NCBI GenBank assembly: GCA_026415435.1
Contig: JAOAHC010000040.1
Location: 137,456-201,455 of the forward strand
DNA length: 64,000 nt
From: Clostridia bacterium
GTDB taxonomy: Bacteria; Bacillota; Clostridia; TANB77; CAG-465
Direction of reading: 5' to 3'
Shown here: one piece after another, positions 386-46,229 of the stretch
How positions within the stretch are numbered: position 1 is the stretch's first letter
Layout: every line of letters begins with the position of its first letter
Made by a program: the position numbers and the translations under genes
Notes under the pieces: model-generated
The model's input: only the letters and a program-made list of their open reading frames with translations
Database searches by the model: none
Told to the model about the DNA's origin: nothing

Positions 386-1237
386 TTAAATTAATTCTAC
401 TATTGTAGCCATTGTACCATACTGCTCGATTCCTGATTTTCTTGTTCTTCTATATGAAAAAAATTTTTCCTCATTACAAACCGTACATATATTTGAAAGT
501 ATTATATTTTCATCTTGTACACCTATATTCATTAACTCTTTTTTTATAACATACGGAAAATCAACAAAATATTCTCCGTTAGACTTACTAATTATATATT
601 CATCTTCGTAAGGCCACAATTTTAAAAATTCTTCTTTCAACCTAGAATCTGAACTATTCCAACAACACTTATTTATTGAAGGTCCAATACAAACTATCAT
701 ATCAGAATATTTTGAATTAAATCTTTTATTCATAGCTTTTACTGCGTTTAAATAAATTTGTTTAACTGTGCCTCTCCAGCCACTATGTATATTTGATACT
801 ACATTTTTTATAGGATCATATATAATTATTGGATTACAATCAGCTGTAGTGACAAGTGTAGCTATATTTTTTTTATCTGTAATATATCCATCAATCTCAC
901 TTTGATTTTCTTTTTTGTACTCATATTCTGACATATTATCTAAATCTAAAATTAATACTTTATCTGTATGTGTTTGTTTGGCCATATATATATTACTTGG
1001 ATCTATTTTTAATTCACTGCAAATTATATCCAAATTTTTATATATATTTTCTTTTTTATCTCCTGTATTTAGTTTAAAATTAAGCGAACTATGTACTCCT
1101 TCGCTTACCCCACCATTTTTTAATGTACAGCAATGTTTTAGTTTATATTGGTACTTATTTAAAATATTAAATTGTAAATATTCAAGTTCACCGTTTTTTA
1201 TATGAGTTATATCTTTATTTGTAAAATTTACATTCAA
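386..1237 (-). CDS. pgeF: YfiH/PgeF-family laccase-domain protein (purine nucleoside phosphorylase / peptidoglycan editing factor)
   Basis: 283 aa containing TADCNP, HSGWRGT and a C-terminal CxxC...Y.R arrangement typical of the DUF152/YfiH family. Confidence 0.7.
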   Translation of the reverse strand: MNVNFTNKDITHIKNGELEYLQFNILNKYQYKLKHCCTLKNGGVSEGVHSSLNFKLNTGDKKENIYKNLDIICSELKIDPSNIYMAKQTHTDKVLILDLDNMSEYEYKKENQSEIDGYITDKKNIATLVTTADCNPIIIYDPIKNVVSNIHSGWRGTVKQIYLNAVKAMNKRFNSKYSDMIVCIGPSINKCCWNSSDSRLKEEFLKLWPYEDEYIISKSNGEYFVDFPYVIKKELMNIGVQDENIILSNICTVCNEEKFFSYRRTRKSGIEQYGTMATIVELI

Positions 1238-1249
1238 AATAAATACCTC

Positions 1250-4200
1250 CTAGTATACAGATATCTCCTTATTTAATTTTAAAGAATATATATACACTTT
1301 TTCTACTTTTTTATTTGTTAACTTTTCAAGTGCTTTTTTATACACATTTAGTTGTTCTTTATATCTTAAAATATATTCATTTTCTTCAGTAATATTATCT
1401 GTCTTAAAATCTAACAATACTATATTTGAGTTAATATTAATATAGTATAAGTCGATTATGCCTTGGATTATACTATCTGATATAGTTTTATCCTTAAGAA
1501 CAAACTTTGTTTCTTTAAATATATTTTCATCAGGAAGATTTCTTATTTCTTTACCTACATTTGAGTTTATAAAATTATATATACCTTGTACATCAATTTG
1601 TGATATGTCTTCGTGTTGTATATATTTTTTATTAAGCAATAATTGAATATAGTTTTCTACATCTCTTTTTGTATTAATAGTTTTAAAATCTAACTCCTTT
1701 AATATAAAATGCATTAAATTACCTTTTTTAGTAGCGTTATATTTTTTAGAATCTGTACTTAAACTACTAGGAACTTGAAGTTCAATTTTACTTTCTTCCT
1801 TATTTAAACTTTCATTTGCCATCTCTTTTAACTTACTTACACTTACACGAGTCTGTGTTCCAATTTCATCTTCATAAGTATATTTATATTTTATATTTTC
1901 AGTTAAATTTTTATACATTTCTTCTGTTTCTTTGATCATATTTTTGTCATCTTTAAACAAGTTATTTATATATAATATTTTGCTTTCTAAAGTATTTAAT
2001 TTATCATTTTTAACATTAAACATATTAATATCTTCCATGATATGACTGTAAAGCTGCGATTTTTCTTTAACATAAACATGATTTAATTTAAATAACTTTC
2101 TTACATATTCATCTTCAGATTTTTCAAAATAGGTTTTAAGTGCCATAATTATACTTGTAAAATAACTATTATTTTTACTTACTATATTAGCATCTACTTT
2201 ATCATTTTCATACATTAAAAATATATTTTCATACATCTTTTTATAATCATTTACTGTAGAATATATAATTAATTTTTCTTTTGCACGAGTAAGTGCTACA
2301 TAAAGCATTCTTAGCTCTTCAGATTTTACATCATTCATTATACTTGTTTTTATACTTTGCTTTATAACTGTAGGATAAGTAATTTTCATATCTTCATTTA
2401 CATAGTTTATTCCTATACCTAATTTGCTATCTAAAACTACATCTGTCCTAATATCCATATAATTATATTTACTGCTGGTATCTGCTAATATAACTACTGG
2501 AAATTCTAGGCCTTTAGATTTATGTATTGTCATTATTCTTACTACATTTTCATTTTCTCCAATAATTTTAGCAACAGATGTATCCGTTGTAGCTTTAGAT
2601 TTTAATTTATCAATATATGTAACATATGAATATATTGATCCACCACTTTGTTTTTCAAATTTGACTGCAAAATCAATAAGCATATCCAAATTCGCCTTAC
2701 ATTGCATCTCATTTTTCATCAAACTAAATTGGTTATATATACCTGTTTCTTTATATATTCTAGTTATAAGTTCTGAAATAGGATATCTTTTTGAATATTC
2801 TCTAAATCTTTGAATTAATAGTAGGAAGATATTTATTTTTTCAATAAATTCAAGCTTATCATCATTACTTGAAATAAGTAATGCATTATATAAATAATCA
2901 TTTTTAGCATATTCATGAATTATTGTAAGTTCATCTAAATTAAATTTGCCTATTATGCTGTACATTACAGATACAAGTTCGATATCTTGATATGGATTAT
3001 CTAATACTTTTAACATAGATATTACAAGTTTTATATCGTCACTATCAAATAGATTTGAACCCGCATCACAAAAAACAGGAATAAGATATTGCTTTAAGAT
3101 ATTATTTAATATATTTCCTTTATCCCTAATACTTCTCAGTAATATTATTATATCTTTGTATTTGATATCTCTAAAATTATTTCCATCAAACACTTTAAAT
3201 TTTTCAACATTAACTAATTCATTTATACGTTTTGCAATATATATAGATTCTATTTCAAATTTTTTAAGATCTTCTATATACTCTTTTGTAATATTAGACT
3301 CAGTTTGTAAAACATTATCATCAGCATATTCAGTGCTTTCATCTATTTCAACCTCTTTTAGGTCTAAAATATTTACTTCAGAAGAATAATCCTGATCCTC
3401 ACATTCTAAATACTTCTCTGCACCAAATATAAGTTTTTCGTTTTCAGAGTAATTTATTCCACCAAGTTTTTCACTCATTATTTGTGAAAAAATATAATTT
3501 ATGCTATCTACAACATTTTTTCTACTTCTGAAATTTTTAGCAAGTATTATCTTATATTTTTTAGAAATTTCTTCATCAAAATTATATTCATCATCAATTT
3601 CATTCAAACTTTCATATTCATTGTATTTACTACTAAATATCTCAGGCATAGCTTGTCTAAATCTGTATATACTTTGTTTTATATCTCCCACCATAAATCT
3701 ATTTTTAGAACCTGATACAGCTTCTAAAATGGTTTCTTGAATATAACTTGTATCTTGATATTCATCAGTATATACTTCAACAAATTTTTCTTGCATACTA
3801 AGTGCTACATCAGTTTGTTTTGAATCACTTATTAGTAATTTTAGTGCTAAATGTTCAATATCATTAAAATCAATTACATTTGCTTGTTTTTTCAAAATTG
3901 AATATTCACTATCAAATTTTTCTAAAAACTCGTAGAAATATTTTAAATATTTATAGGTTACTTTTAGTTCAATTAAAATATCTTTACTAATAGTGTATAC
4001 ATTGATTTTTATAGAATTTATTGTCTTTTTTATATATTCATCTCTAAATTTCTTTATATCTTCTTTAAGACTTTCGTTTTGAACTTTTATTCTAGGGAAA
4101 ATTGAAAATTTAACTAAACTTAAATTTTCAAAAAGTTCGTCCCAAGAATTTCTACTGCATTTTATGCATCTTTCCACCATTTCTAGATCTTCTTCTAACA

Positions 4201-4969
4201 TTTGAATACACTTTAAAAAATCTTCATCTTCCTTAGATTTAATATGTACAATGAAATTCTTTATTCTCTCGTATAGTATTCTTAGTTCACTAATAGAATT
4301 ATCATATATTTGCTTACCAAAATCAAAATTACATAAATCTAATCTTTCATTTTCAATATTATATTTTTCAATTTGAGATTTTAACCAACTAAAAGGATAA
4401 GGAAAACTTTGAATATATGAATATATTTTAAACATTGTATTAGTAAACTCTTCATCTTTTCCATTAAATAATTCTAGTATATTGTACAGAGCGTTAGATA
4501 TGTTTTCATTTAAATCTTCTTTTGAATTAACATACTCAGATTCTAAAATCTGACTCATAGCAGTATTTTTAAAAATATTACTTTGAACCTCATCACATAT
4601 TTTAATATTTGGATCTAGATCAAGTAAATAGAAATTTGAACGTATAAGTTCTAAACAAAAAGCATGAATAGTCATTATGCTCGCCCTATTTATATTAATA
4701 AGTTGCTTTTTTAAAAATATATTAGTCCTATCTTTTTGTATAGCTTTATATATTGCACTCAGCAATCTTTCTTTTAATTCAGAAGCAGCAGCATTTGTAA
4801 AAGTAACTACTAAAATTCTATCAATATCTACTCCTTCATTTATTATTTTATTTATAATTCGCTCTACCAAAACAGCAGTTTTTCCGCTCCCTGCGGAAGC
4901 GGAAACTAAAATATTACCATTTTTCTTTTTTATTGCAAGTTGTTGTTCATTTGTCCACATATATTTCAC
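1250..4969 (-). CDS. addA: ATP-dependent helicase/nuclease subunit A (AddA)
   Basis: 1239 aa. N-terminal UvrD-type helicase with Walker A SASAGSGKTAVL, and a C-terminal RecB-family nuclease motif GIIDLYY...LLDFKTD. Length matches Bacillus AddA. Confidence 0.8.
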   Translation of the reverse strand: MKYMWTNEQQLAIKKKNGNILVSASAGSGKTAVLVERIINKIINEGVDIDRILVVTFTNAAASELKERLLSAIYKAIQKDRTNIFLKKQLININRASIMTIHAFCLELIRSNFYLLDLDPNIKICDEVQSNIFKNTAMSQILESEYVNSKEDLNENISNALYNILELFNGKDEEFTNTMFKIYSYIQSFPYPFSWLKSQIEKYNIENERLDLCNFDFGKQIYDNSISELRILYERIKNFIVHIKSKEDEDFLKCIQMLEEDLEMVERCIKCSRNSWDELFENLSLVKFSIFPRIKVQNESLKEDIKKFRDEYIKKTINSIKINVYTISKDILIELKVTYKYLKYFYEFLEKFDSEYSILKKQANVIDFNDIEHLALKLLISDSKQTDVALSMQEKFVEVYTDEYQDTSYIQETILEAVSGSKNRFMVGDIKQSIYRFRQAMPEIFSSKYNEYESLNEIDDEYNFDEEISKKYKIILAKNFRSRKNVVDSINYIFSQIMSEKLGGINYSENEKLIFGAEKYLECEDQDYSSEVNILDLKEVEIDESTEYADDNVLQTESNITKEYIEDLKKFEIESIYIAKRINELVNVEKFKVFDGNNFRDIKYKDIIILLRSIRDKGNILNNILKQYLIPVFCDAGSNLFDSDDIKLVISMLKVLDNPYQDIELVSVMYSIIGKFNLDELTIIHEYAKNDYLYNALLISSNDDKLEFIEKINIFLLLIQRFREYSKRYPISELITRIYKETGIYNQFSLMKNEMQCKANLDMLIDFAVKFEKQSGGSIYSYVTYIDKLKSKATTDTSVAKIIGENENVVRIMTIHKSKGLEFPVVILADTSSKYNYMDIRTDVVLDSKLGIGINYVNEDMKITYPTVIKQSIKTSIMNDVKSEELRMLYVALTRAKEKLIIYSTVNDYKKMYENIFLMYENDKVDANIVSKNNSYFTSIIMALKTYFEKSEDEYVRKLFKLNHVYVKEKSQLYSHIMEDINMFNVKNDKLNTLESKILYINNLFKDDKNMIKETEEMYKNLTENIKYKYTYEDEIGTQTRVSVSKLKEMANESLNKEESKIELQVPSSLSTDSKKYNATKKGNLMHFILKELDFKTINTKRDVENYIQLLLNKKYIQHEDISQIDVQGIYNFINSNVGKEIRNLPDENIFKETKFVLKDKTISDSIIQGIIDLYYININSNIVLLDFKTDNITEENEYILRYKEQLNVYKKALEKLTNKKVEKVYIYSLKLNKEISVY

Positions 4970-4977
4970 CTGCCATA

Positions 4978-7641
4978 TTATAAAGTTTCACCTACTACTA
5001 AAACCGGTCTAAAACTTAAATAGTTAAATGCTGCTCCTGATGAAGCTCCAAAAGTAAATATTCCCGATGCACTAGTTAGATCGTATCCTCCACCTCTTAT
5101 GAAGAATGGAGTATTTGTATATGGTATTGTAGTTTGATCTAAATACCAAGCTGAATCACTTGCAGATCCGTCCTGAGAAGTTTCATAAATAGCGTCTCCT
5201 TTTTTATTTATAGTACCAACATAATTATTTGTATAGTCATCAGTTGTACCTTTATCATAAATATCCTTGTACTTTACATCCGCATTTACAAGATTACTAC
5301 CGTTATTATTTAAATTTGCATTTTGATTATTTATATATGCTGCTGTACACTCCCATGCACCACCACTCATATCATATATTCCATATATATTTCCAGTAGT
5401 AGAAGCATTTATTCCATTTGTTACATCTGTATATGCATAAGTAGTAATGGTGGAAGATGCACTTACAGTAGTACCCGCATTACCTGTTAAATAGTTACTG
5501 TTTGGATTTATCCACACTTCAGCATTTTTACCATATTTACTTTGAGCAAGATAACTTACAGCTCCCCATTCTGTATTCTTCATAAGATGGGTATCTATTC
5601 CTTGACCAGTAGTTCCCCAGCCATACTTGTTATTTGTTTCCATATTTCTACTTGCTGTAAACATTTGAGAAACACTTAAATTTCTTAGTGAACTCACACC
5701 TGGTTTTATATCTAAAGAATCTACAGTTCCACTTACTTCAAACTTTGCTACCCAAATACCAGTAAGTTCTACACTACCAAATTTGAATGCTGGATGTGAT
5801 GTCCATTTATTATTTGATGCATTAGAAGAAGTTCCTACATCTATACTTGAAATAATACTACTATTCCAATTATCATTAGTTCCTTGACTAAATTGCACGT
5901 CTACAACTCCACCTTGTGAAGAATTAGTATGCCACAAACTTGAAATCTTATATATATATCTTGGTATCCAAACCCACATCGATCCATCGGCACTTTGTGC
6001 GTTTGCCCATACTTTATTTTTATAATCATACCATGAAGTATCTGTACTTGGACTTGCTACAGTATCCCAAGCACTTGTAGTTGTGTTCCACTTCTTAGCC
6101 GTAAGACCAGAAACTAATACTGGTGTATTTGAAACTTCATAATCACTTAGATTTTCATTTATTACGAAGATTTTTGTCTCTATCTTTCTTAGTGCAACTG
6201 TACTATTATTATCTGTAACCTCGATTTTATAGTATATTTTACTAGCGTTTACATTATCATAATTTATCTGTCTTGATGTTGTAAGAGAATCTGAATTTAC
6301 AGAAATTATTTGTTCATTTATGTATGTTAAACCATCTAAACTATATGATGATTTTATTTGACTTACTCCTCTTGTACTATATACATTAGTAGTTGAATTA
6401 AATTTTTCTTTTGTTGCACTATTTATGATATTTGATATATTAATAATAGGCTGTACACGAACTCCTTGTAAAATATAGTTGCCTGCCTTGTCAAATACCG
6501 CAATAGAAACCTGATTTACGTTTTTAGGAATGTTAATACTTACAGTATTTGATTCTATATTCTTTAAAACTTTACTTTTTTGTTTCATATATTCAATATC
6601 AAAACTGCTAATATCTTTATAGTAGTTTTGTTCTGTACCATTATCATCTATTCTAGTTAGATAATCATATCTTATCTGATTTACACCACTAGCATTATCA
6701 GCAATATCAAATGTTACAACATTCATATTTGTGTAGCTAGAAGTTAATATATTTGTAACATCTGGATGAGTAAGATCAAGTTTAGTTAGATCTATCCTTA
6801 CCTTACCAATATCACTACTATCTTTTTTCTTTATTATATCCATATACTTTTTATTTTCTAATATATCTGTTATAGCAAATGTAGCAGTATCAGTTAAAAT
6901 ACTATTTGGTGCAAATAAATCAGTTACATTAAAACTTTTTTCATATTCTCCACTTGATGTAATCATTTGTTTTTGAACACCATCAGATATAGATATATAC
7001 ATTGTTTCGTTTGAATCCAAAGTAGTTTTTACTATAAGTGACATTTTACTTGTCCAATCTTTTTGTTTTGTTACATTAATGCCTGAAGAAGAAATGACTT
7101 CGGTTTGTGAACCATCAGGTATACCAAGATTTTGATCTACTTTAACAATATTAGATATTTTAGGACTTATTGAAAAGTATACTGTTGATTTTGCATAAAA
7201 TCCTTTTAGATAATATACGTTCATAGATGGATATGCAATAACAAAAACATCATCTTGACCATCTGTGCCCCTACCGTAAGAAGTACTTTGTACATTTATT
7301 TTACTTAAATCTATTTTGTAATATTCATTCACACTACCATCATTGTTTTGATCAACTTCTGATAAAAATTCACTTTCTACATTATCAGCAACTAATCCAA
7401 TGACTTGATTTTTTGTAAGTGGTTCACTATTTTCATCTGATGTTGGAAACTTTCCATTTGAAATATAGTAAGCTTCACTTGCATCCTCCACTTGTTTTAT
7501 ACTCTCCGCCATTTTAGTTATTGTAGCGTTATCAATAGAATTCTTAGTTGAAATTACCGTTACTGATATTAGTATTAAAGCTACAACTATTGTTATCATT
7601 AGAACTATAAATGAGATACCTTTTTTATTCATAATTTTCAT
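4978..7641 (-). CDS. Large secreted/surface protein: pilin-like N-terminal signal-anchor (MKIMNKKG-ISFIVLMITIVVALIL) + Ig-like region + C-terminal FGE-sulfatase-like (SUMF1-fold) domain
   Basis: 887 aa. The N-terminus resembles a class III (prepilin) signal but lacks Glu+5. The C-terminal region carries GIWVAKFEV, THLMKNTEWGAVSYLAQSKYG (compare RLPTEAEWEYAARGG) and NIYGIYDMSGGAWEC (compare GLYDMSGNVWEW). It is paralogous to the 7673..8947 and 41547..46229 products. Confidence 0.5.
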   Translation of the reverse strand: MKIMNKKGISFIVLMITIVVALILISVTVISTKNSIDNATITKMAESIKQVEDASEAYYISNGKFPTSDENSEPLTKNQVIGLVADNVESEFLSEVDQNNDGSVNEYYKIDLSKINVQSTSYGRGTDGQDDVFVIAYPSMNVYYLKGFYAKSTVYFSISPKISNIVKVDQNLGIPDGSQTEVISSSGINVTKQKDWTSKMSLIVKTTLDSNETMYISISDGVQKQMITSSGEYEKSFNVTDLFAPNSILTDTATFAITDILENKKYMDIIKKKDSSDIGKVRIDLTKLDLTHPDVTNILTSSYTNMNVVTFDIADNASGVNQIRYDYLTRIDDNGTEQNYYKDISSFDIEYMKQKSKVLKNIESNTVSINIPKNVNQVSIAVFDKAGNYILQGVRVQPIINISNIINSATKEKFNSTTNVYSTRGVSQIKSSYSLDGLTYINEQIISVNSDSLTTSRQINYDNVNASKIYYKIEVTDNNSTVALRKIETKIFVINENLSDYEVSNTPVLVSGLTAKKWNTTTSAWDTVASPSTDTSWYDYKNKVWANAQSADGSMWVWIPRYIYKISSLWHTNSSQGGVVDVQFSQGTNDNWNSSIISSIDVGTSSNASNNKWTSHPAFKFGSVELTGIWVAKFEVSGTVDSLDIKPGVSSLRNLSVSQMFTASRNMETNNKYGWGTTGQGIDTHLMKNTEWGAVSYLAQSKYGKNAEVWINPNSNYLTGNAGTTVSASSTITTYAYTDVTNGINASTTGNIYGIYDMSGGAWECTAAYINNQNANLNNNGSNLVNADVKYKDIYDKGTTDDYTNNYVGTINKKGDAIYETSQDGSASDSAWYLDQTTIPYTNTPFFIRGGGYDLTSASGIFTFGASSGAAFNYLSFRPVLVVGETL

Positions 7642-7672
7642 CCTTTTCCTAAATCATCTTTTGATTATTTTC

Positions 7673-8947
7673 TTAATACACCTCAAAACCATCTATTTTT
7701 GTCCAGTTTCCGGAATTATCACTTATTAATACAGAAATACTTTTTATATTTTTAGGTAAATCTATACTATATACACCTTCGGAAATATAACTTGCAACTT
7801 TCCCATACTCGTTTAAATATTCTTTATCCAAACTAGATACATTATTATAGTATGGTAATTCTCCCGAACCAGATTCGTTTGATTTAGTTAAATAATCATA
7901 CTTAATACTTTTTATATTACTGCTATCATCCGAAACTATAAATTTTACTGTGTTTTTATCACTACTACTAACAATATCAGAATCACTTAAAACTGGAGGA
8001 GTATTATCATAGTTTACCAAATCAGATTTTATAGTCTGTTTAGTTATCCCACCATTTTTTATAATTATGGTAATATATCTTTTTGTGTATTCTACATTAT
8101 TAAATGCAGCAATTTCTTCACTAGTAAATGGAGAAATAAGTATATCATTTCCTTGACTATCTTTATTATCACTAAGTAAACTAGACAAATTGAAATTTCT
8201 TATATTATTTCCTTCTTGCATACCAAATACTTCTTTTTCTGTCTGCACACCACTAAGCATTATATATACTTTCTCTGAAGAAACCAAACTTGCTTCAAAC
8301 TTAATAGGCATAGTATTTGTCCAACTATTAGCCAATTTTAAAATTGACAAATTGGCAGTTTTGTTTTGTATATTTTGATTATTTTCTATCTTTACACTTT
8401 GAGCTATATTTAACTTATTACTAAGTGAAAAATACACATTATTTTGTACGTTTAATCCCAATAAATAGTATACTTTCATAGATGGATATGATACTACATA
8501 TACATCATTTTGTCCTAGTGTTTTTGCACCTGCAACAGTAGTTTTAATATTAATTTTACCTAAATCTATTTCATAAAAAGTTCCTAAATTTGAATCATCA
8601 TAATAATCTCCATTTGAAGATAACTCATAAATAAAATTATTTCTATATCTTGAATCAACCATATTTGTAACTTGCGATTGATTTAAACTACTACTTGATG
8701 AATCAGGAACAGGAAAAGTACCATGATTTATATAAAATTCGTTAGTTAAATCTTGTATTTTTGAAAGATCCGTAGCAAAACTTGTTAAAGTAGCTTGGGC
8801 TATACTTGATCTTGTTTGAATTATAGCTGCTGTTATGAGGATAATTGCAGCTATTATTGTAATTATTAAAACTACAAGTGAAACTCCTTTTTTTGAGTTT
8901 TTGATGTTTATATTAAAATCTATATATCTAAAATTAACTATTCTCAC
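7673..8947 (-). CDS. Pilin-like N-terminal signal-anchor protein, a shorter paralog of the 887-aa protein (shared N-terminal and Ig-like regions, no FGE domain)
   Basis: 424 aa, GTG start with an AAGGTGA RBS. KKG-VSLVVLIITII hydrophobic segment. The YEIDLGKINIKTT...GQNDVYVVSYPSMKVYYL and IKYDYLTK...DLPKNIKSISVLISDNSGN blocks align with the 887-aa protein. Confidence 0.5.
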   Translation of the reverse strand: MRIVNFRYIDFNINIKNSKKGVSLVVLIITIIAAIILITAAIIQTRSSIAQATLTSFATDLSKIQDLTNEFYINHGTFPVPDSSSSSLNQSQVTNMVDSRYRNNFIYELSSNGDYYDDSNLGTFYEIDLGKINIKTTVAGAKTLGQNDVYVVSYPSMKVYYLLGLNVQNNVYFSLSNKLNIAQSVKIENNQNIQNKTANLSILKLANSWTNTMPIKFEASLVSSEKVYIMLSGVQTEKEVFGMQEGNNIRNFNLSSLLSDNKDSQGNDILISPFTSEEIAAFNNVEYTKRYITIIIKNGGITKQTIKSDLVNYDNTPPVLSDSDIVSSSDKNTVKFIVSDDSSNIKSIKYDYLTKSNESGSGELPYYNNVSSLDKEYLNEYGKVASYISEGVYSIDLPKNIKSISVLISDNSGNWTKIDGFEVY

Positions 8948-8966: not shown

Positions 8967-8995
8967 ATTTTACATATTTTAATAACTTTTTTCAA
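8967..8995 (-). promoter_or_regulatory. Candidate sigma-A promoter for the 424aa-887aa-addA-pgeF gene string (TTGAAA, 17 nt, TAAAAT on the minus strand)
   Basis: Minus-strand hexamers at 8990-8995 (-35) and 8967-8972 (-10), about 20 nt upstream of the GTG start. Confidence 0.3.
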
Positions 8996-41546: not shown

Positions 41547-44500
41547 TTACATATACATTTTAATCCTTATATAATCCATATAAACTCTTTTGTTAGCTAC
41601 ATAAGCCCATATTCCAAAATTTTGACTACTAGGTAATGTTGTTATATAACCACTAGTAAGTAAACTGCCATTTTTGTATAGCTCATATGCTTTACTTTTA
41701 TATAAAACAAATCTCCATGTATTATCACCAGATACGAAGTTTCCATTTGAATAAAATGTAGTAATTGTACTTCCATTCATAATATTTAGTGTATCCGCAT
41801 AATCTCTGTGATAATTAATGCTAAATAATCCAAAATTTATATCTGATCTATAATTAGTTCCGTAAGATGCAGAATTAAAATGAAATGATACCTCTACTCT
41901 ATCATAAGTATTGTTATATCCCCAAGTCCTATTATATGTACAAGTAAAATTAGAAGTCCCTGCTGTATGTGTCCAGTAAGTACCAGAATATATACTACCC
42001 TTATCAAAATTATTTACAGTCATTTCATCAATAAGTGCTTCAACAACAACCTGTGTAATTGTCGCACCAGATGTTGTAATTGTAGTATAATATCCATTAT
42101 TATCGTAAATATATATATTTGTTGAATATATACCATATTCATTATTATGATCTGATCTGTTTACCCTATAATACCATGTGCCATTTCCTAAATTTTGACC
42201 ACTAGCAATAGGATTTGTTGACCAATTAGATTGTATGTCATCTTGACCATTATTGTTAGTCCATGTTGGAAATTGAACTCTATTAATTCCACTTGCTGAA
42301 TCAGCTATTCCATATACATATACATCATATCCATCTTCAGTTACATTATTTATAATGTAACTTGTATATGTAGGAGCAGTCGTATCTCTATTTACACTTA
42401 CCATACTTGAATTTGGGCCTATATTACCAGCATTATCAATTGCTCTTATCCAGATATTTCTTTGTCCATCCGTATTTATTACCCATGGACTTGTCACATC
42501 TATCCATCCACTTGTTCCATTTAATGAATATTGATATTTTTGTATACCTGACTGACTATCTGTAGTACTAAATGTAAGTGTTACGTTACTTGATGTCCAT
42601 GATCCACTAGTATAGCCATTTAAATTTACTGTAGGAACTCCTGGGGAAGTCCTATCTATGTTAGTTACAGTTAAAGTAGAAGCTTCACTTGTATTCCCTG
42701 ATGAATCTTTTCCTCTTGCATAGACCGTTGTATTATTTGTTGTAACTACTACTGGTGTTGTATAATTACTCCATGTTGTCCCATTCAAACTATATTCTTT
42801 TACCGTTACATCAGATGGATATGTTATTGTAACTGTTACATTTCCACTAGTCCATCCTGTTGGATTTGCTAACATTATTGGATTATCTGGTGCTGTCACA
42901 TCTTTTTCAAATAGATTAGAATGTGTTATTACCTCGTTTCCTGCTTTATCTTTTCCCTTTATCCATAAATATTGTGACATATTTTCATTACTTGTTAGAG
43001 TTGCTCCATTTGTAAATGTTATCCATCCACTTGTAGGCTCAGTTTCACTTGCAGTCCATATATACTGTAATGATGTATTATCTATTCCACTTCCTCCTAC
43101 ATCTGATACTGTTACCTTTGAACTTAATGATTTGTCAAATCCACCGTTTGGTGAAAATGTTATTGTTGGACTTGCATTATCTATTGCAAAGGTTGTACTG
43201 CTCCTTAAATCATTTCTATTTCCAGATGAATCTTCTATCATTCCTTTTTGTATTTCTATTTTAACTCCAGATATATTTCTTGTAACTTCACTTTCTACCG
43301 TTAAATCCACATACCATTTATGAATATTATTTGGATCCATTCTTACTGTTTTTAATATTTCACTATCCGATATTATTATTGAACCAGTTTTAACTAATAT
43401 ATTTTCTAATATATTTTCTTCTGTTATTATTGTATCATTTAATTCATTTGAATTATCTGTAAATGTTAAACTATATGTAACTATATCTCCAGCCTTTGCA
43501 TAAGTTTTACTTGGCTGTGATATTGTTATTCCAGGTTTTGTTGTATCATACATTACTTCTAAGTAATCTGTATTTGAATCTGTGCTTGATGGTCCCTTAC
43601 TGCAATATGCTTTAAATTTTGTTGTTCTAGTCACATTGGTTATGCTGTAATAATATATCCCGGTATTTTCATCTCTAAGCATATTTATATCATTTTTAGC
43701 TACTAATGTCCATGTTGCTGGTTCTGCTGTTCCTGTCCATCTTTTATAATACATATATTCTGATTCTTTTGGGTATGATATTACTACTTTTTCTCCCACT
43801 CTTAATGTTACACCATTATTCTCATATTCAGGAAAGTCTATATCTGTACCATATGGATTATCTGACCCCATTCCTTCTTCTACTATTCTTGATGTTATAT
43901 ATATACTTGGATCAGTTACTCTGTCTGGCATTGCTTCTATATCTTCTTTTATTGTTAGAACCGGTCTAAAACCTACGCCACCAGATCCATACCCTGAATA
44001 ACTCCTATATGAGTACATTCCTATCCTTGCATTTTGAGATGTACCAGGTCTTAATCCTCCTCTTAGTATAAATGGTGCTGAGTTTTGTGGATACACACTA
44101 TAGTCACCATACCAGCTACTATATGAATTTACATTTGTATTTAATATTTTATATAACGATGCTCCACTGGTATTATATACACCTTTATCTGCTAAACTTG
44201 ATAACAACTCATAGTTTTGACTTGATATATTTTGTCTTACAGTCGCATTAGGTAATTTTGCTGAATTATCTTTATCCAATTGTGACGAAGGATATTTATC
44301 AAAGTATTTATCTAATCCACTATATACTCCACCTGTATATTTTATATATCTATGATTATTGTTAACATATGAAGCGACCATTTCTTCTGATCCTCCTGCC
44401 ATATCATAAATTCCATATACATTTTTTGTTGTACTTGCATTTACTCCATATTTTGTATTATCATACGCAAATGTAGTTGTATTTAAAGCTGCACCGTACG

Positions 44501-46229
44501 TTGGTGTTGCTGTCTTTCCTGAATAACCTGTTCTCAAATAGTAATTATTATTTATCCATACTTCTTCGCCATTTCTTCCATATTTACTTTGTGTTAAATA
44601 TTCTATTGCATCCCACTCTCTGTTTTTTATCAAATGAGTATCAATGCTTATTCCGTCCGTTCCAAATCCATATTTACTATCTGTTTTCATATTTATACAA
44701 TAGTTAAAAGCATCTTTTAATGCTATAAGTCTCCAGCTTCCAACTCCTGGTTTTACTTGTATTCTATATTTTGTCTTATTATTTGCATCTTTATATGTAG
44801 CTCTGCTCGCCTCAAACTTCGCTACCCATATACCTTGTAACTGAAGTTTCTCCCCTTCTTTTGGTTCTACTTCAAACGCTGATGCTAAAGTGTATCCTGT
44901 TGGTGCATCTGCACTTCCTTGTATGAATTTTATATCTACTACTCCAGCACTACTACTATGTGTCCCACTTGTTATCTTATATGCAAACCTTGGTATCCAT
45001 ACCCACATACTTCCGTCACTACTTTGCGCATTTGCCCAATACTGTGATTCTGTCTTATATGAGTACCATGATTTATCTAGATTAGTTACTTCTATCCATT
45101 GATTCCCTGTCCACTCTACTGGTTTTAATATTTTTTCTGTGCTGTTTTCACCTTTTGTAAGCAGTGGCTCATTTCCTTCATTTCCACTATCCCATTTAGC
45201 ATTTATATCTATATATGGTTCATCTCCTATTGTTATTATCTCTATTGTTGCCTCTGACTGTCCATATGTATTTATCGCCTTTGCATATATTGTTCCATTC
45301 GTATTTACCACAAATGGTGAACTATACGATGAATATGTTTCTCCATCAAAACTATATTGTACTACATCTGCATTTCTTGTATTTATTGTTACTGTAACAT
45401 TTCCAGAGGGCTTATTCGCTATAGTTTGTTCTGGATTTGTTACTATAGATATATCTGGTTCCTTCTTTATATTTACTATATCTAATTGATCTGTAACTTC
45501 TCCTGCTGCATTTAAAGCTCTTCCATATACTACTCCATTATCATATACCTTGAAACTACCTTGATACAAGCTATATGTTTCTCCATCTAAGCTATACTCT
45601 ACTTTATTCGCATTATTTGCTGTTAACTTTACATTTACTTCTGTTGTAGATCCAGCCTCTTCTTCTTGAGCTGGTGTTGCTTCCATTTGTAGTGTAGGTA
45701 ATACTTCCTCCCTTGCTACTTCTGTTCCTCCGTATACACTATACCATCTTTTATTTCCTATATCTTGTCCTTGCTCATAAAATATTTTACCCGTATCCAT
45801 ATCTTGTATTATACTTGCACTTTTTGTTATATATCCACCCTCAGTTGTAGGCCCACTATTTATATTTAATTCCAAATCAGATAGCTTTACGTAGTATAAT
45901 TTACCTTGTTTGGTATCTATAGTTGTACTTAACACTTGCTCCATATGTGTTATTAGATCAGCTGATAATGTTGATATATCAACTATTCCCGCTTCTCCTT
46001 TATCCGTATCTATAGGATTTATATTATTATCTTGATTGTTTGCATATTTACTTGTTTTATATAAATTTATAGCTTGCTCTATACTATTCATATCATTCAT
46101 AAATCTTGCTTTTGATGCAGATTCTCCTATACCATTTGATGCAGTAAGTATTACAGCTGTAGCTATTATAACTATAACTATTATCGTTATTATTAAAGTT
46201 ATTAGTGATATTCCTCTTATATTTTTCAT
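41547..46229 (-). CDS. Giant multidomain secreted/surface protein: pilin-like N-terminal signal-anchor + CHB_HEX_C-like repeats + FGE-sulfatase-like domain + Ig-like repeats + GBS Bsp-like repeat + C-terminal concanavalin/LamG-like lectin domain
   Basis: 1560 aa. MKNIRG-ISLITLIITIIVIVII N-terminus. Tandem ~75-aa repeats (VEYSLDGETYSLY / VQYSFDGETYSSY). The WANAQSSDGSMWVWIPRFAYKI block and FGE motifs (GIWVAKFEA, THLIKNREWDAIEYLTQSKYG, NVYGIYDMAGG) are shared with the 887-aa protein. FPTWTNNNGQDDIQ...YGIY...IYIYDNNG matches the Bsp-like repeat. C-terminal lectin-like beta-sandwich. Confidence 0.5.
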   Translation of the reverse strand: MKNIRGISLITLIITIIVIVIIATAVILTASNGIGESASKARFMNDMNSIEQAINLYKTSKYANNQDNNINPIDTDKGEAGIVDISTLSADLITHMEQVLSTTIDTKQGKLYYVKLSDLELNINSGPTTEGGYITKSASIIQDMDTGKIFYEQGQDIGNKRWYSVYGGTEVAREEVLPTLQMEATPAQEEEAGSTTEVNVKLTANNANKVEYSLDGETYSLYQGSFKVYDNGVVYGRALNAAGEVTDQLDIVNIKKEPDISIVTNPEQTIANKPSGNVTVTINTRNADVVQYSFDGETYSSYSSPFVVNTNGTIYAKAINTYGQSEATIEIITIGDEPYIDINAKWDSGNEGNEPLLTKGENSTEKILKPVEWTGNQWIEVTNLDKSWYSYKTESQYWANAQSSDGSMWVWIPRFAYKITSGTHSSSAGVVDIKFIQGSADAPTGYTLASAFEVEPKEGEKLQLQGIWVAKFEASRATYKDANNKTKYRIQVKPGVGSWRLIALKDAFNYCINMKTDSKYGFGTDGISIDTHLIKNREWDAIEYLTQSKYGRNGEEVWINNNYYLRTGYSGKTATPTYGAALNTTTFAYDNTKYGVNASTTKNVYGIYDMAGGSEEMVASYVNNNHRYIKYTGGVYSGLDKYFDKYPSSQLDKDNSAKLPNATVRQNISSQNYELLSSLADKGVYNTSGASLYKILNTNVNSYSSWYGDYSVYPQNSAPFILRGGLRPGTSQNARIGMYSYRSYSGYGSGGVGFRPVLTIKEDIEAMPDRVTDPSIYITSRIVEEGMGSDNPYGTDIDFPEYENNGVTLRVGEKVVISYPKESEYMYYKRWTGTAEPATWTLVAKNDINMLRDENTGIYYYSITNVTRTTKFKAYCSKGPSSTDSNTDYLEVMYDTTKPGITISQPSKTYAKAGDIVTYSLTFTDNSNELNDTIITEENILENILVKTGSIIISDSEILKTVRMDPNNIHKWYVDLTVESEVTRNISGVKIEIQKGMIEDSSGNRNDLRSSTTFAIDNASPTITFSPNGGFDKSLSSKVTVSDVGGSGIDNTSLQYIWTASETEPTSGWITFTNGATLTSNENMSQYLWIKGKDKAGNEVITHSNLFEKDVTAPDNPIMLANPTGWTSGNVTVTITYPSDVTVKEYSLNGTTWSNYTTPVVVTTNNTTVYARGKDSSGNTSEASTLTVTNIDRTSPGVPTVNLNGYTSGSWTSSNVTLTFSTTDSQSGIQKYQYSLNGTSGWIDVTSPWVINTDGQRNIWIRAIDNAGNIGPNSSMVSVNRDTTAPTYTSYIINNVTEDGYDVYVYGIADSASGINRVQFPTWTNNNGQDDIQSNWSTNPIASGQNLGNGTWYYRVNRSDHNNEYGIYSTNIYIYDNNGYYTTITTSGATITQVVVEALIDEMTVNNFDKGSIYSGTYWTHTAGTSNFTCTYNRTWGYNNTYDRVEVSFHFNSASYGTNYRSDINFGLFSINYHRDYADTLNIMNGSTITTFYSNGNFVSGDNTWRFVLYKSKAYELYKNGSLLTSGYITTLPSSQNFGIWAYVANKRVYMDYIRIKMYM

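Follow-up and report, generated by a model that had tools for sequence, protein, structure and literature searches.

Modular pilins have been described as widespread and catalogued in 264 architectures (Raynaud et al., 2021; PMC8179133). In Streptococcus sanguinis, PilC joins a pilin module to Ig-like and ConA-like lectin domains, and PilB joins one to a vWA domain (PMC8179133, PMC9934059). K-type pilins and S. sanguinis PilA lack the glutamate that mature pilins usually carry at position 5 (Glu5), an absence explained by their place as first subunits, at the filament tip (PMC9934059). [quoted passage not shown] Here we describe two tandem genes that bring these themes together. They lie in a 64,000-nucleotide (nt) stretch of DNA, referred to as the window, from a Clostridia bacterium (assembly GCA_026415435.1, contig JAOAHC010000040.1, positions 137,456 to 201,455), and encode proteins of 424 and 887 amino acids (aa) that, judged from their sequences, are type-IV-pilin-derived, modular and extracytoplasmic.

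The gene for the 424-aa protein (7673..8947, minus strand; NCBI protein N2749_03920, a 100% match to P0025) starts with GTG behind the ribosome-binding site AAGGTG and precedes the gene for the 887-aa protein (4978..7641, minus strand; N2749_03915). Both products are recorded as hypothetical proteins on a 395-kb contig of the metagenome-assembled genome. For the longer open reading frame (ORF), the second ATG at 7632 is the more likely start, since AAGGA lies 8 nt upstream of it and the resulting 884-aa protein with the leader MNKKG agrees with the NCBI call (P0001, 884 aa). In a BLASTP comparison, residues 6-389 of the long protein pair with residues 19-415 of its shorter neighbour at 34% identity (405 aa, E 1e-54), in agreement with an earlier, sequence-only reading of this DNA (the initial annotation), which had described tandem pilin-like paralogs sharing an N-terminal globular region and an Ig-like block. 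In the short protein, the pilin-like module (aa 1-182; 8402..8947, minus strand) matches the family hidden Markov model (HMM) at aa 18-182 with an E of 2e-63; its basic leader of 21 aa ends at Gly21 and is followed by the hydrophobic alpha1N segment. In the AlphaFold model of this protein (predicted local distance difference test, pLDDT, 81; 23 sequences), the leader is disordered; one helix of 52 residues (aa 24-75) follows, then a small alpha/beta head that extends to about aa 175, and finally two tandem Ig-like beta-sandwich domains (aa 193-310 and 319-422; 7682..8371, minus strand). The long protein has the leader M(KIM)NKKG followed by ISFIV, a pilin-like module with a GspG-like head (aa 1-169; 7135..7641, minus strand) and a beta-rich spacer (aa 170-499; 6145..7134, minus strand), assigned from BLASTP to the 424-aa protein and the model of that paralog; the first ~225 aa of the spacer are homologous to both Ig-like domains of the short protein. 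Only the long protein of the two continues into a further module (aa 500-887; 4981..6144, minus strand), as had been noted initially.

Both N-termini resemble class III signals, with a basic leader, Gly at position -1 and ~20-22 hydrophobic residues (KKG↓ISFIVLMITIVVALILISV and KKG↓VSLVVLIITIIAAIILITA, the arrow marking the predicted cleavage site). In pilin register the mature proteins would begin with ISFIV (long) and VSLVV (short), and position +5, usually Glu in pilins, is Val in each. A profile of 20 family N-termini, compared with PDB sequences, placed only type IV pilins on top: Geobacter PilA-N was best (E 1.6e-6), its leader, Gly(-1) and helix all falling into register, followed by S. 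sanguinis PilE1 (7e-4), TcpA, C. difficile pilin chimeras, T. thermophilus PilA5 and GspG. This result backs the class III prepilin-like signal without Glu at +5 that had been suggested for the two proteins. The top HMM match of the N-terminal 130 residues is TIGR01710, the GspG model, which matches the long protein with an E of 3.5e-7 over the full protein and 1.8e-8 over the isolated module (aa 7-130); the match covers model positions 1-121 of 134 and scores 34.5 bits, well under the equivalog cut-off of 88.85. The PF08334 score is 21.0 bits, the cut-off being 21, and the N-terminus of the long protein aligns in register with GspG in the PDB. TIGR01710 is matched by 10 of 18 family members (best E 1.8e-8) and a PpdD-type pilin model by 4 of the 18. 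Gly(-1) is invariant in all 20 aligned members, Ser/Thr(+2) and Leu(+3) are conserved, and the residue at +5 is Val, Ala, Thr or Ile in place of Glu. The start of E. coli GspK, a Glu5-less tip pseudopilin (G↓VALLIVL), resembles the G↓ISLIVL found in this family.

The N_methyl models, proposed initially as a check on these N-termini, gave a different picture: neither PF07963 nor TIGR02532 matched either protein at E<=1, and a single one of the 18 family members did match (E 0.006). Canonical pilins carrying the same C-terminal module as the long protein pass N_methyl with 27-30 bits at a cut-off of 21.2. The alignment of the family also contains, in the pilin-like head, a nearly invariant E-x3-N-x-D motif (Glu95, Asn99 and Asp101 of the long protein) and an invariant Asp131. 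GspG has a calcium site, and by analogy these four residues could form a putative metal-binding loop.

The N-terminal module is by no means confined to the pair. While a word-indexed homologue search with the 424-aa protein retrieved this protein alone, orthologues were recovered through synteny and HMMs, and an exhaustive HMM search covering 1.84 billion cluster representatives returned 144 clusters at E<=1e-30 and 905 at E<=1e-10. Members range from about 155 to 2,315 aa in length. The short ones (155-175 aa) stop right after the last conserved strand and, where checked, are complete genes within their contigs; the N-terminal module therefore also exists as a stand-alone, pilin-sized protein. 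Longer members carry the lectin-fold module described below, PF03781-type FGE domains in up to three tandem copies, Gly-rich PF12810 domains or LamG-like PF13385 domains. In one cellular relative, two adjoining PF12810 (glycine-rich, ALK_LTK_GRD) proteins have the same Glu5-less pilin-like N-terminus (L006:4784-7106), and the N-terminal device is therefore common to unrelated cargo. A third paralog, absent from the initial annotation, lies in the window itself, 34 kb from the pair. This protein of 1560 aa (41547..46229, minus strand) matches the HMMs of both the N-terminal family (E 2e-14) and the C-terminal module (E 3e-104), and combines a Glu5-less pilin-like N-terminus (aa 1-167; MKNIRG↓ISLIT, with Thr at +5) with a lectin-fold module at ~aa 353-763, Ig-like repeats and a GBS_Bsp-like repeat (PF08481, aa 1297-1384). 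Its gene stands alone between a diacylglycerol-kinase-like gene and a small ORF, in a region with a GC content of 0.32-0.33, compared with ~0.26 around it.

The C-terminal module of the long protein had initially been assigned an FGE/SUMF1 fold. PF03781 did not match the long protein at E<=1; the AlphaFold model of residues 500-887, computed with 55 aligned homologues, is of very high confidence (pLDDT 96.5; predicted template modelling score, pTM, 0.95), and in a Foldseek search against the PDB its best match was TaqVP (5vf4; E 1.3e-9, probability 1.0), followed by EgtB (E 1.5e-2), ToxD and OvoA, all of them FGE-like proteins with a C-type-lectin fold. The assignment is therefore right at the level of the fold, and fails at the level of the HMM. 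It had also been held that missing HMM matches to N_methyl and FGE domains should count against the whole proposal. No such match was obtained for either domain, and the profile and fold evidence nevertheless support both; relying on HMMs alone is too strict a test for these proteins.

That the C-terminal domain might be a membrane-tethered enzyme, i.e. a formylglycine-generating or sulfoxide-synthase-type oxidase, is suggested by the matches to EgtB, OvoA and ToxD, which are of low significance, and by many invariant polar residues, including His571, Asp683, His685 and Glu820. Human FGE is known for a catalytic cysteine pair. The alignment of 55 sequences contains no invariant or nearly invariant Cys, and the FGE catalytic pair is therefore absent. 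Moreover, the fit to the non-enzymatic TaqVP is far better than that to EgtB (E 1e-9 vs 1.5e-2), the PF03781 model finds nothing, and the TvpA-like DGR targets with this fold have been published as binders without FGE activity (PMC5758913). We consider an enzyme of this kind highly improbable. Paralogous modules in relatives, which we call type B, do match PF03781 (P0014: 25.7 bits vs a cut-off of 23.3). The least conserved stretch of the module, by column conservation, is aa 851-876 (5014..5091, minus strand), flanked by RGG and FRP.

Homologues of residues 500-887 are numerous (at least 5,598 proteins), and the best 120 share 47-62% identity with the module. Their usual layout comprises a PF07963 prepilin leader, sometimes a PF16403 Ig-like domain, and then the module, in proteins of 500-600 aa that automatic annotation calls PilA, PilE or 'prepilin-type N-terminal cleavage/methylation domain-containing protein'. 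Among the best 120, canonical G↓FTL[IV]E leaders predominate, and G↓ISLIV or G↓ITLIA leaders form the second large class. Retrieved proteins with a recognisable N-terminus include 65 of the canonical and about 50 of the Glu5-less G↓ISLIV type. The Glu5-less N-termini fall into two classes, G↓ISLIV... and G↓ITLIA...; an abundant second class, G↓ITLIALVVTIVVLLILAG(I/V)(T/S)I, bears the same module (80 metagenome loci, L019-L098), so that the loss of Glu5 extends beyond the clade of the window. In these 80 loci, 38 module genes have Glu5-less pilin-like N-termini and 14 canonical ones, and the remaining 46 either lack such an N-terminus or are cut by contig ends. Some carriers of the G↓ITLIALVVTIVVLLILAG type sit on contigs labelled human gut. 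On one 1.49-Mb chromosome (OW818670.1), genes for two small canonical pilins and for a modular pilin are interspersed in the gap-pgk-tpi-spo0A-gpmI cluster (L007:5698-11245), the modular pilin consisting of N_methyl, PF16403 and the module. The same genome encodes at least two further pilins with the module, P0054 and P0123; the gene for P0123 lies between secG and secE.

These numbers bear on the suggestion, made initially, that an FGE-fold module on a pilin scaffold would be new. IPR005532 denotes the sulfatase-modifying-factor domain. Dataset S1 of Raynaud et al. (2021; PMC8179133) already contains the IPR012902-IPR005532 architecture, represented by 8 proteins. Together with the homologues counted above, most of which are on prepilin leaders, this entry removes the claim of novelty. 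[quoted passage not shown]

A link between the module and hypermutation emerged from its relatives. Only seven viral contigs carry a relative of the module, at 32-35% identity, and in six of these seven loci, namely those with sufficient flank, the module gene adjoins genes for Avd and a reverse transcriptase (RT). Complete DGR cassettes of bAvd, RT and template repeat (TR) are present in L015:4244-8229 (IMGVR_UViG_2814123063_000001) and in L013, L014, L016, L017 and L018. For L015, Pfam identifies bAvd (E 1.7e-26) and RVT_1 (E 7.5e-20), and a 147-nt repeat pairs an intergenic TR (5655-5801) with a variable region (VR; 6893-7039) in the RGG...GFR segment of the module, with all mismatches at TR adenines. 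In two metagenome loci (L091:107-3289 and L083:75-2313), the DGR target itself combines a pilin-like N-terminus lacking Glu5 (KG↓ITLISLVVTIIILLILAG) with the lectin-fold module; their 194-nt VR/TR pair has adenine-specific mismatches with one exception, and an RT is nearby in L091. The homologue in L073 likewise has DGR components. No paper dedicated to hypermutable pilin-like adhesins of the L091/L083 type was found, and the literature contains passing mentions of pilin-type DGR targets. The VR of the homologues, as placed in L015, L091 and L083, coincides in position with the least conserved segment (aa 851-876) of the window protein. We conclude that the C-terminal module of the long protein is a lectin-fold module of the DGR variable-protein type, with a binding role assigned by analogy, in which aa 851-876 would provide the ligand-contact surface.

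Given that its nearest solved structure is a DGR variable protein, that its homologues, one of them Glu5-less and pilin-like, are confirmed DGR targets, and that the module varies most in the segment equivalent to the VR, the 887-aa protein might itself be hypermutated by a DGR encoded outside the window. A DGR inside the window, considered after the TaqVP match, was ruled out: the 64 kb hold neither an RT (no RT ORF bearing YxDD, and no phmmer match with the L015 RT) nor Avd, nor any TR-like repeat of the 3' end of the 887-aa gene. RT, Avd and template repeat were likewise absent from the syntenic loci L001-L003 and the cellular loci L005-L007. The module is not diversified in this genome, and we regard active hypermutation from elsewhere as very unlikely.

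As the initial annotation had stated, pilus assembly genes are missing from the window: phmmer searches, for which E. coli GspE, GspF and GspO and an A24 peptidase from a Firmicute served as queries, found no GspE/PilB-, GspF/PilC- or A24-like ORF in the 64 kb. The short contigs of the stand-alone Glu5-less genes P0188, P0252 and P0288 contain no machinery either. In about 0.8 Mb of related loci, a single peptidase gene was seen: L068:1737-2483, on a low-GC contig, encodes an A24 prepilin-peptidase-like protein (GFGDVKL motif; match to E. coli GspO at E 1.2e-14), has pepP and efp next in order, and lies ~900 nt downstream of a module gene fragment whose N-terminus is cut by the contig end.

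Taking these observations together, we lean, with some reserve, towards a reading in which the pair and the third paralog are processed pilin-derived, adhesin-like cell-surface proteins, located at a filament tip or forming a membrane-rooted stalk. Homology to pilins in sequence and profile, the fold, the architectures of the family and the targeting of homologues by DGRs are shown by the data, whereas processing, filament incorporation and ligand binding are inferred. The N-terminal helix would insert the proteins in the membrane, and an A24 prepilin peptidase, encoded elsewhere in the genome, would probably cleave after the Gly. The products would then be displayed on a type-IV-like filament, at its tip, or as stalks rooted in the membrane, with the Ig-like domains serving as the stalk. 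The lectin-fold module might bind a ligand through its C-terminal RGG...FRP surface, making the long protein an adhesin or receptor-binding protein, and the 424-aa protein could be a shorter partner or an alternative without binding module. Processing by a prepilin peptidase is favoured because Gly(-1) is invariant, positions +2 and +3 are conserved, the head is GspG-like, stand-alone members exist and the module also occurs on canonical pilins. A position at the tip is suggested by the published placement of the Glu5-less K-type pilins and S. sanguinis PilA, and by S. sanguinis PilC, in which pilin, Ig-like and lectin parts are arranged likewise (PMC9934059).

Several observations weigh against this reading. 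Every member of the N-terminal family lacks Glu5, the stand-alone proteins among them, which exceeds what a tip subunit would need, and the N_methyl models fail. Fold searches with the 424-aa model returned no pilin and were dominated by Ig-like matches. The phmmer queries used for the window found no ATPase, platform or peptidase gene in the flanks of the Glu5-less relatives. The module is 50-60% identical across lineages, with many charged residues invariant, and an enzymatic or fixed-ligand function is therefore possible. There are at least three paralogs within 64 kb and varied cargo in relatives, suggesting a general display or anchor signal over a pilus subunit; combined with the family-wide absence of Glu5, these features fit either general display/anchoring or a Glu5-independent filament. 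In addition, a gene of the superfamily stands immediately upstream of addA in three lineages (the window, L001 and L002), which leaves a link to addA some slight probability.

Much of this would be accounted for if the N-terminus were a signal anchor only, i.e. an uncleaved, unpolymerised type II anchor that exposes the Ig stalk and lectin module without any filament. The missing Glu5, the failing N_methyl HMMs, the lack of machinery near any Glu5-less member, and the many paralogs with varied cargo spread among housekeeping genes are all in line with it. For a plain anchor, however, one would not expect an invariant Gly(-1) and conserved +2 and +3 positions across paralogs that are otherwise ~34% identical. 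Nor would a GspG-like soluble head have to be kept, pilin-sized stand-alone members exist, and canonical Glu5 pilins carry the same module. An unprocessed anchor is thus possible if rather doubtful in our view, and we retain processed, pilin-derived adhesin-like proteins as the working interpretation.

A more far-reaching idea is that uncultured low-GC Firmicutes possess a distinct pilin-derived display system in which every subunit lacks Glu5 and of which the window holds three members. Archaeal type-IV-like filaments form independently of Glu5, and a 'bindosome' is known from archaea. By analogy, such a system could form Glu5-independent filaments or be the bacterial counterpart of the archaeal bindosome, and it would present interchangeable modules, including a lectin-fold domain reprogrammable by DGRs. 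We put this forward tentatively and hold it to be unlikely as it stands.

The genomic setting of the pair invites yet another explanation. At the left end of the window, four co-oriented genes form a minus-strand run: the 424-aa and 887-aa ORFs, addA (1250..4969, minus strand), encoding subunit A of the AddAB helicase-nuclease (TIGR02785, 876.5 bits vs a cut-off of 707.65, an equivalog match), and pgeF (386..1237, minus strand), encoding a peptidoglycan editing factor (TIGR00726, 183 bits; PF02578), a neighbour that is not part of the system. Successive ORFs are separated by 31 nt (424 to 887), 8 nt (887 to addA) and 12 nt (addA to pgeF), as the tight packing described initially implied. The probable start of addA, judged from the ribosome-binding site AGGTGA in front of it, is the ATG at 4960, in which case the second gap becomes 17 nt. 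Divergently upstream of the pair lie tsaE-tsaB-rimI and a gene for a Lon-like protease. A 56%-identical relative (L001) has the identical order, with tsaE divergent, followed by genes for 421 aa and 897 aa, addA and pgeF. A 35%-identical relative (L002/L003) has retained the pair (782 and 815 aa) beside tsaE; in L002, ten unrelated genes separate it from addA (L002:21014), and a different Glu5-less pilin-like protein of 411 aa with a PF03781-type module (L002:19670-20905) is encoded directly upstream of addA, which amounts to a weak recurring association.

The initial annotation had taken this arrangement for an apparent operon, and a functional one might couple DNA capture or uptake to AddA-dependent processing. 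Co-orientation, the short gaps, the lack of a terminator between the genes and the superfamily gene that also comes directly before addA in L001 and the more distant L002/L003 would suit such a partnership. The ten intervening genes in L002 argue against it, as does the company kept by other family members, which are found between secG and secE-nusG, inside gap-pgk-tpi-gpmI, beside tgt and after def. Further, addA has its own ribosome-binding site, the modules lack any DNA-binding feature, and addB is missing: none precedes addA, and the 64 kb contain no AddB-sized ORF, the only ORFs of at least 1000 aa being addA and the gene of the 1560-aa paralog. Because family genes adjoin so many unrelated housekeeping genes, the link is probably positional and without functional partnership; family genes have probably been inserted into housekeeping operons, with read-through transcription. 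We give an AddA-coupled DNA system hardly any credence.

Signals for transcription initiation add little here. The window has a GC content of ~26% and is thus strongly AT-rich, and promoter and terminator scans are uninformative at such AT content. The single promoter candidate proposed initially upstream of the 424-aa gene (TTGAAA-17-TAAAAT; 8967..8995, minus strand) is indeed present; however, promoter-like matches in the AT-rich stretch are rarer than expected by chance (63 found vs 75.6 in shuffles), and the site therefore carries no weight.

If a modular pilin is a pilin module joined to a domain that is not filament-specific, the proteins of this locus belong to this class with a non-canonical pilin module. 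Modular pilins illustrate how simple filaments gain many functions, and few have been studied so far. The locus differs from known modular type IV pilins by its Glu5-less N-terminal family and by a module subtype that HMMs miss: no Pfam model exists for this subtype, although the family is large and uncharacterised, and the N_methyl and PF03781 models overlook both ends of these proteins, a lesson for annotation. In the module family three topics meet, namely type IV pilins, the lectin fold of the FGE type and hypermutation by DGRs, and a sizeable fraction of it lacks Glu5, a residue held to be a hallmark of pilin assembly. If these proteins enter filaments, they would be natural test cases for the role of Glu5; if they stay out of them, they would represent pilins recycled as general display anchors.

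Comparison with individual systems sharpens this picture. S. sanguinis PilB and PilC, for which a tip location has been proposed, share with the long protein the layout of an N-terminal pilin module, an Ig-like spacer and a distal binding module. However, their class III signals are canonical, with Glu5, and their genes lie within the pil locus, whereas the window proteins lack Glu5, fail the N_methyl HMM, have no machinery nearby and use a C-type-lectin-fold module of the FGE subtype in place of vWA or ConA. The absence of Glu5 is shared with GspK/PilK-type pilins, of which GspK is large for a pilin, and with S. sanguinis PilA. K-type pilins, in contrast, are encoded with H, I and J subunits and have their extra domain inserted within the pilin fold, while the window proteins have appended domains, no H/I/J partners nearby and several paralogs per genome. 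The T2SSK Pfam model did not match them, and K-type assignment, which also calls for H/I/J genes, does not apply. Compared with GspG (TIGR01710/PF08334), they lack Glu5, are 3-10 times longer and have no type II secretion genes beside them. [quoted passage not shown] They are single-domain proteins or lipoproteins without pilin fusion, the identity of the long protein to TaqVP is ~15%, and the window lacks the DGR components that go with such proteins. The DGR adhesins of Bacteroides type V pili (bioRxiv 10.1101/2024.11.15.621889) are assembled by strand exchange, are unrelated to type IV pilins and differ in this from the window copies, which moreover are not diversified. With a hypervariable lectin-fold domain on a pilus subunit, they nevertheless parallel the L091/L083 proteins, and these DGR-targeted relatives suggest that programmable adhesins also exist on type-IV-like scaffolds.

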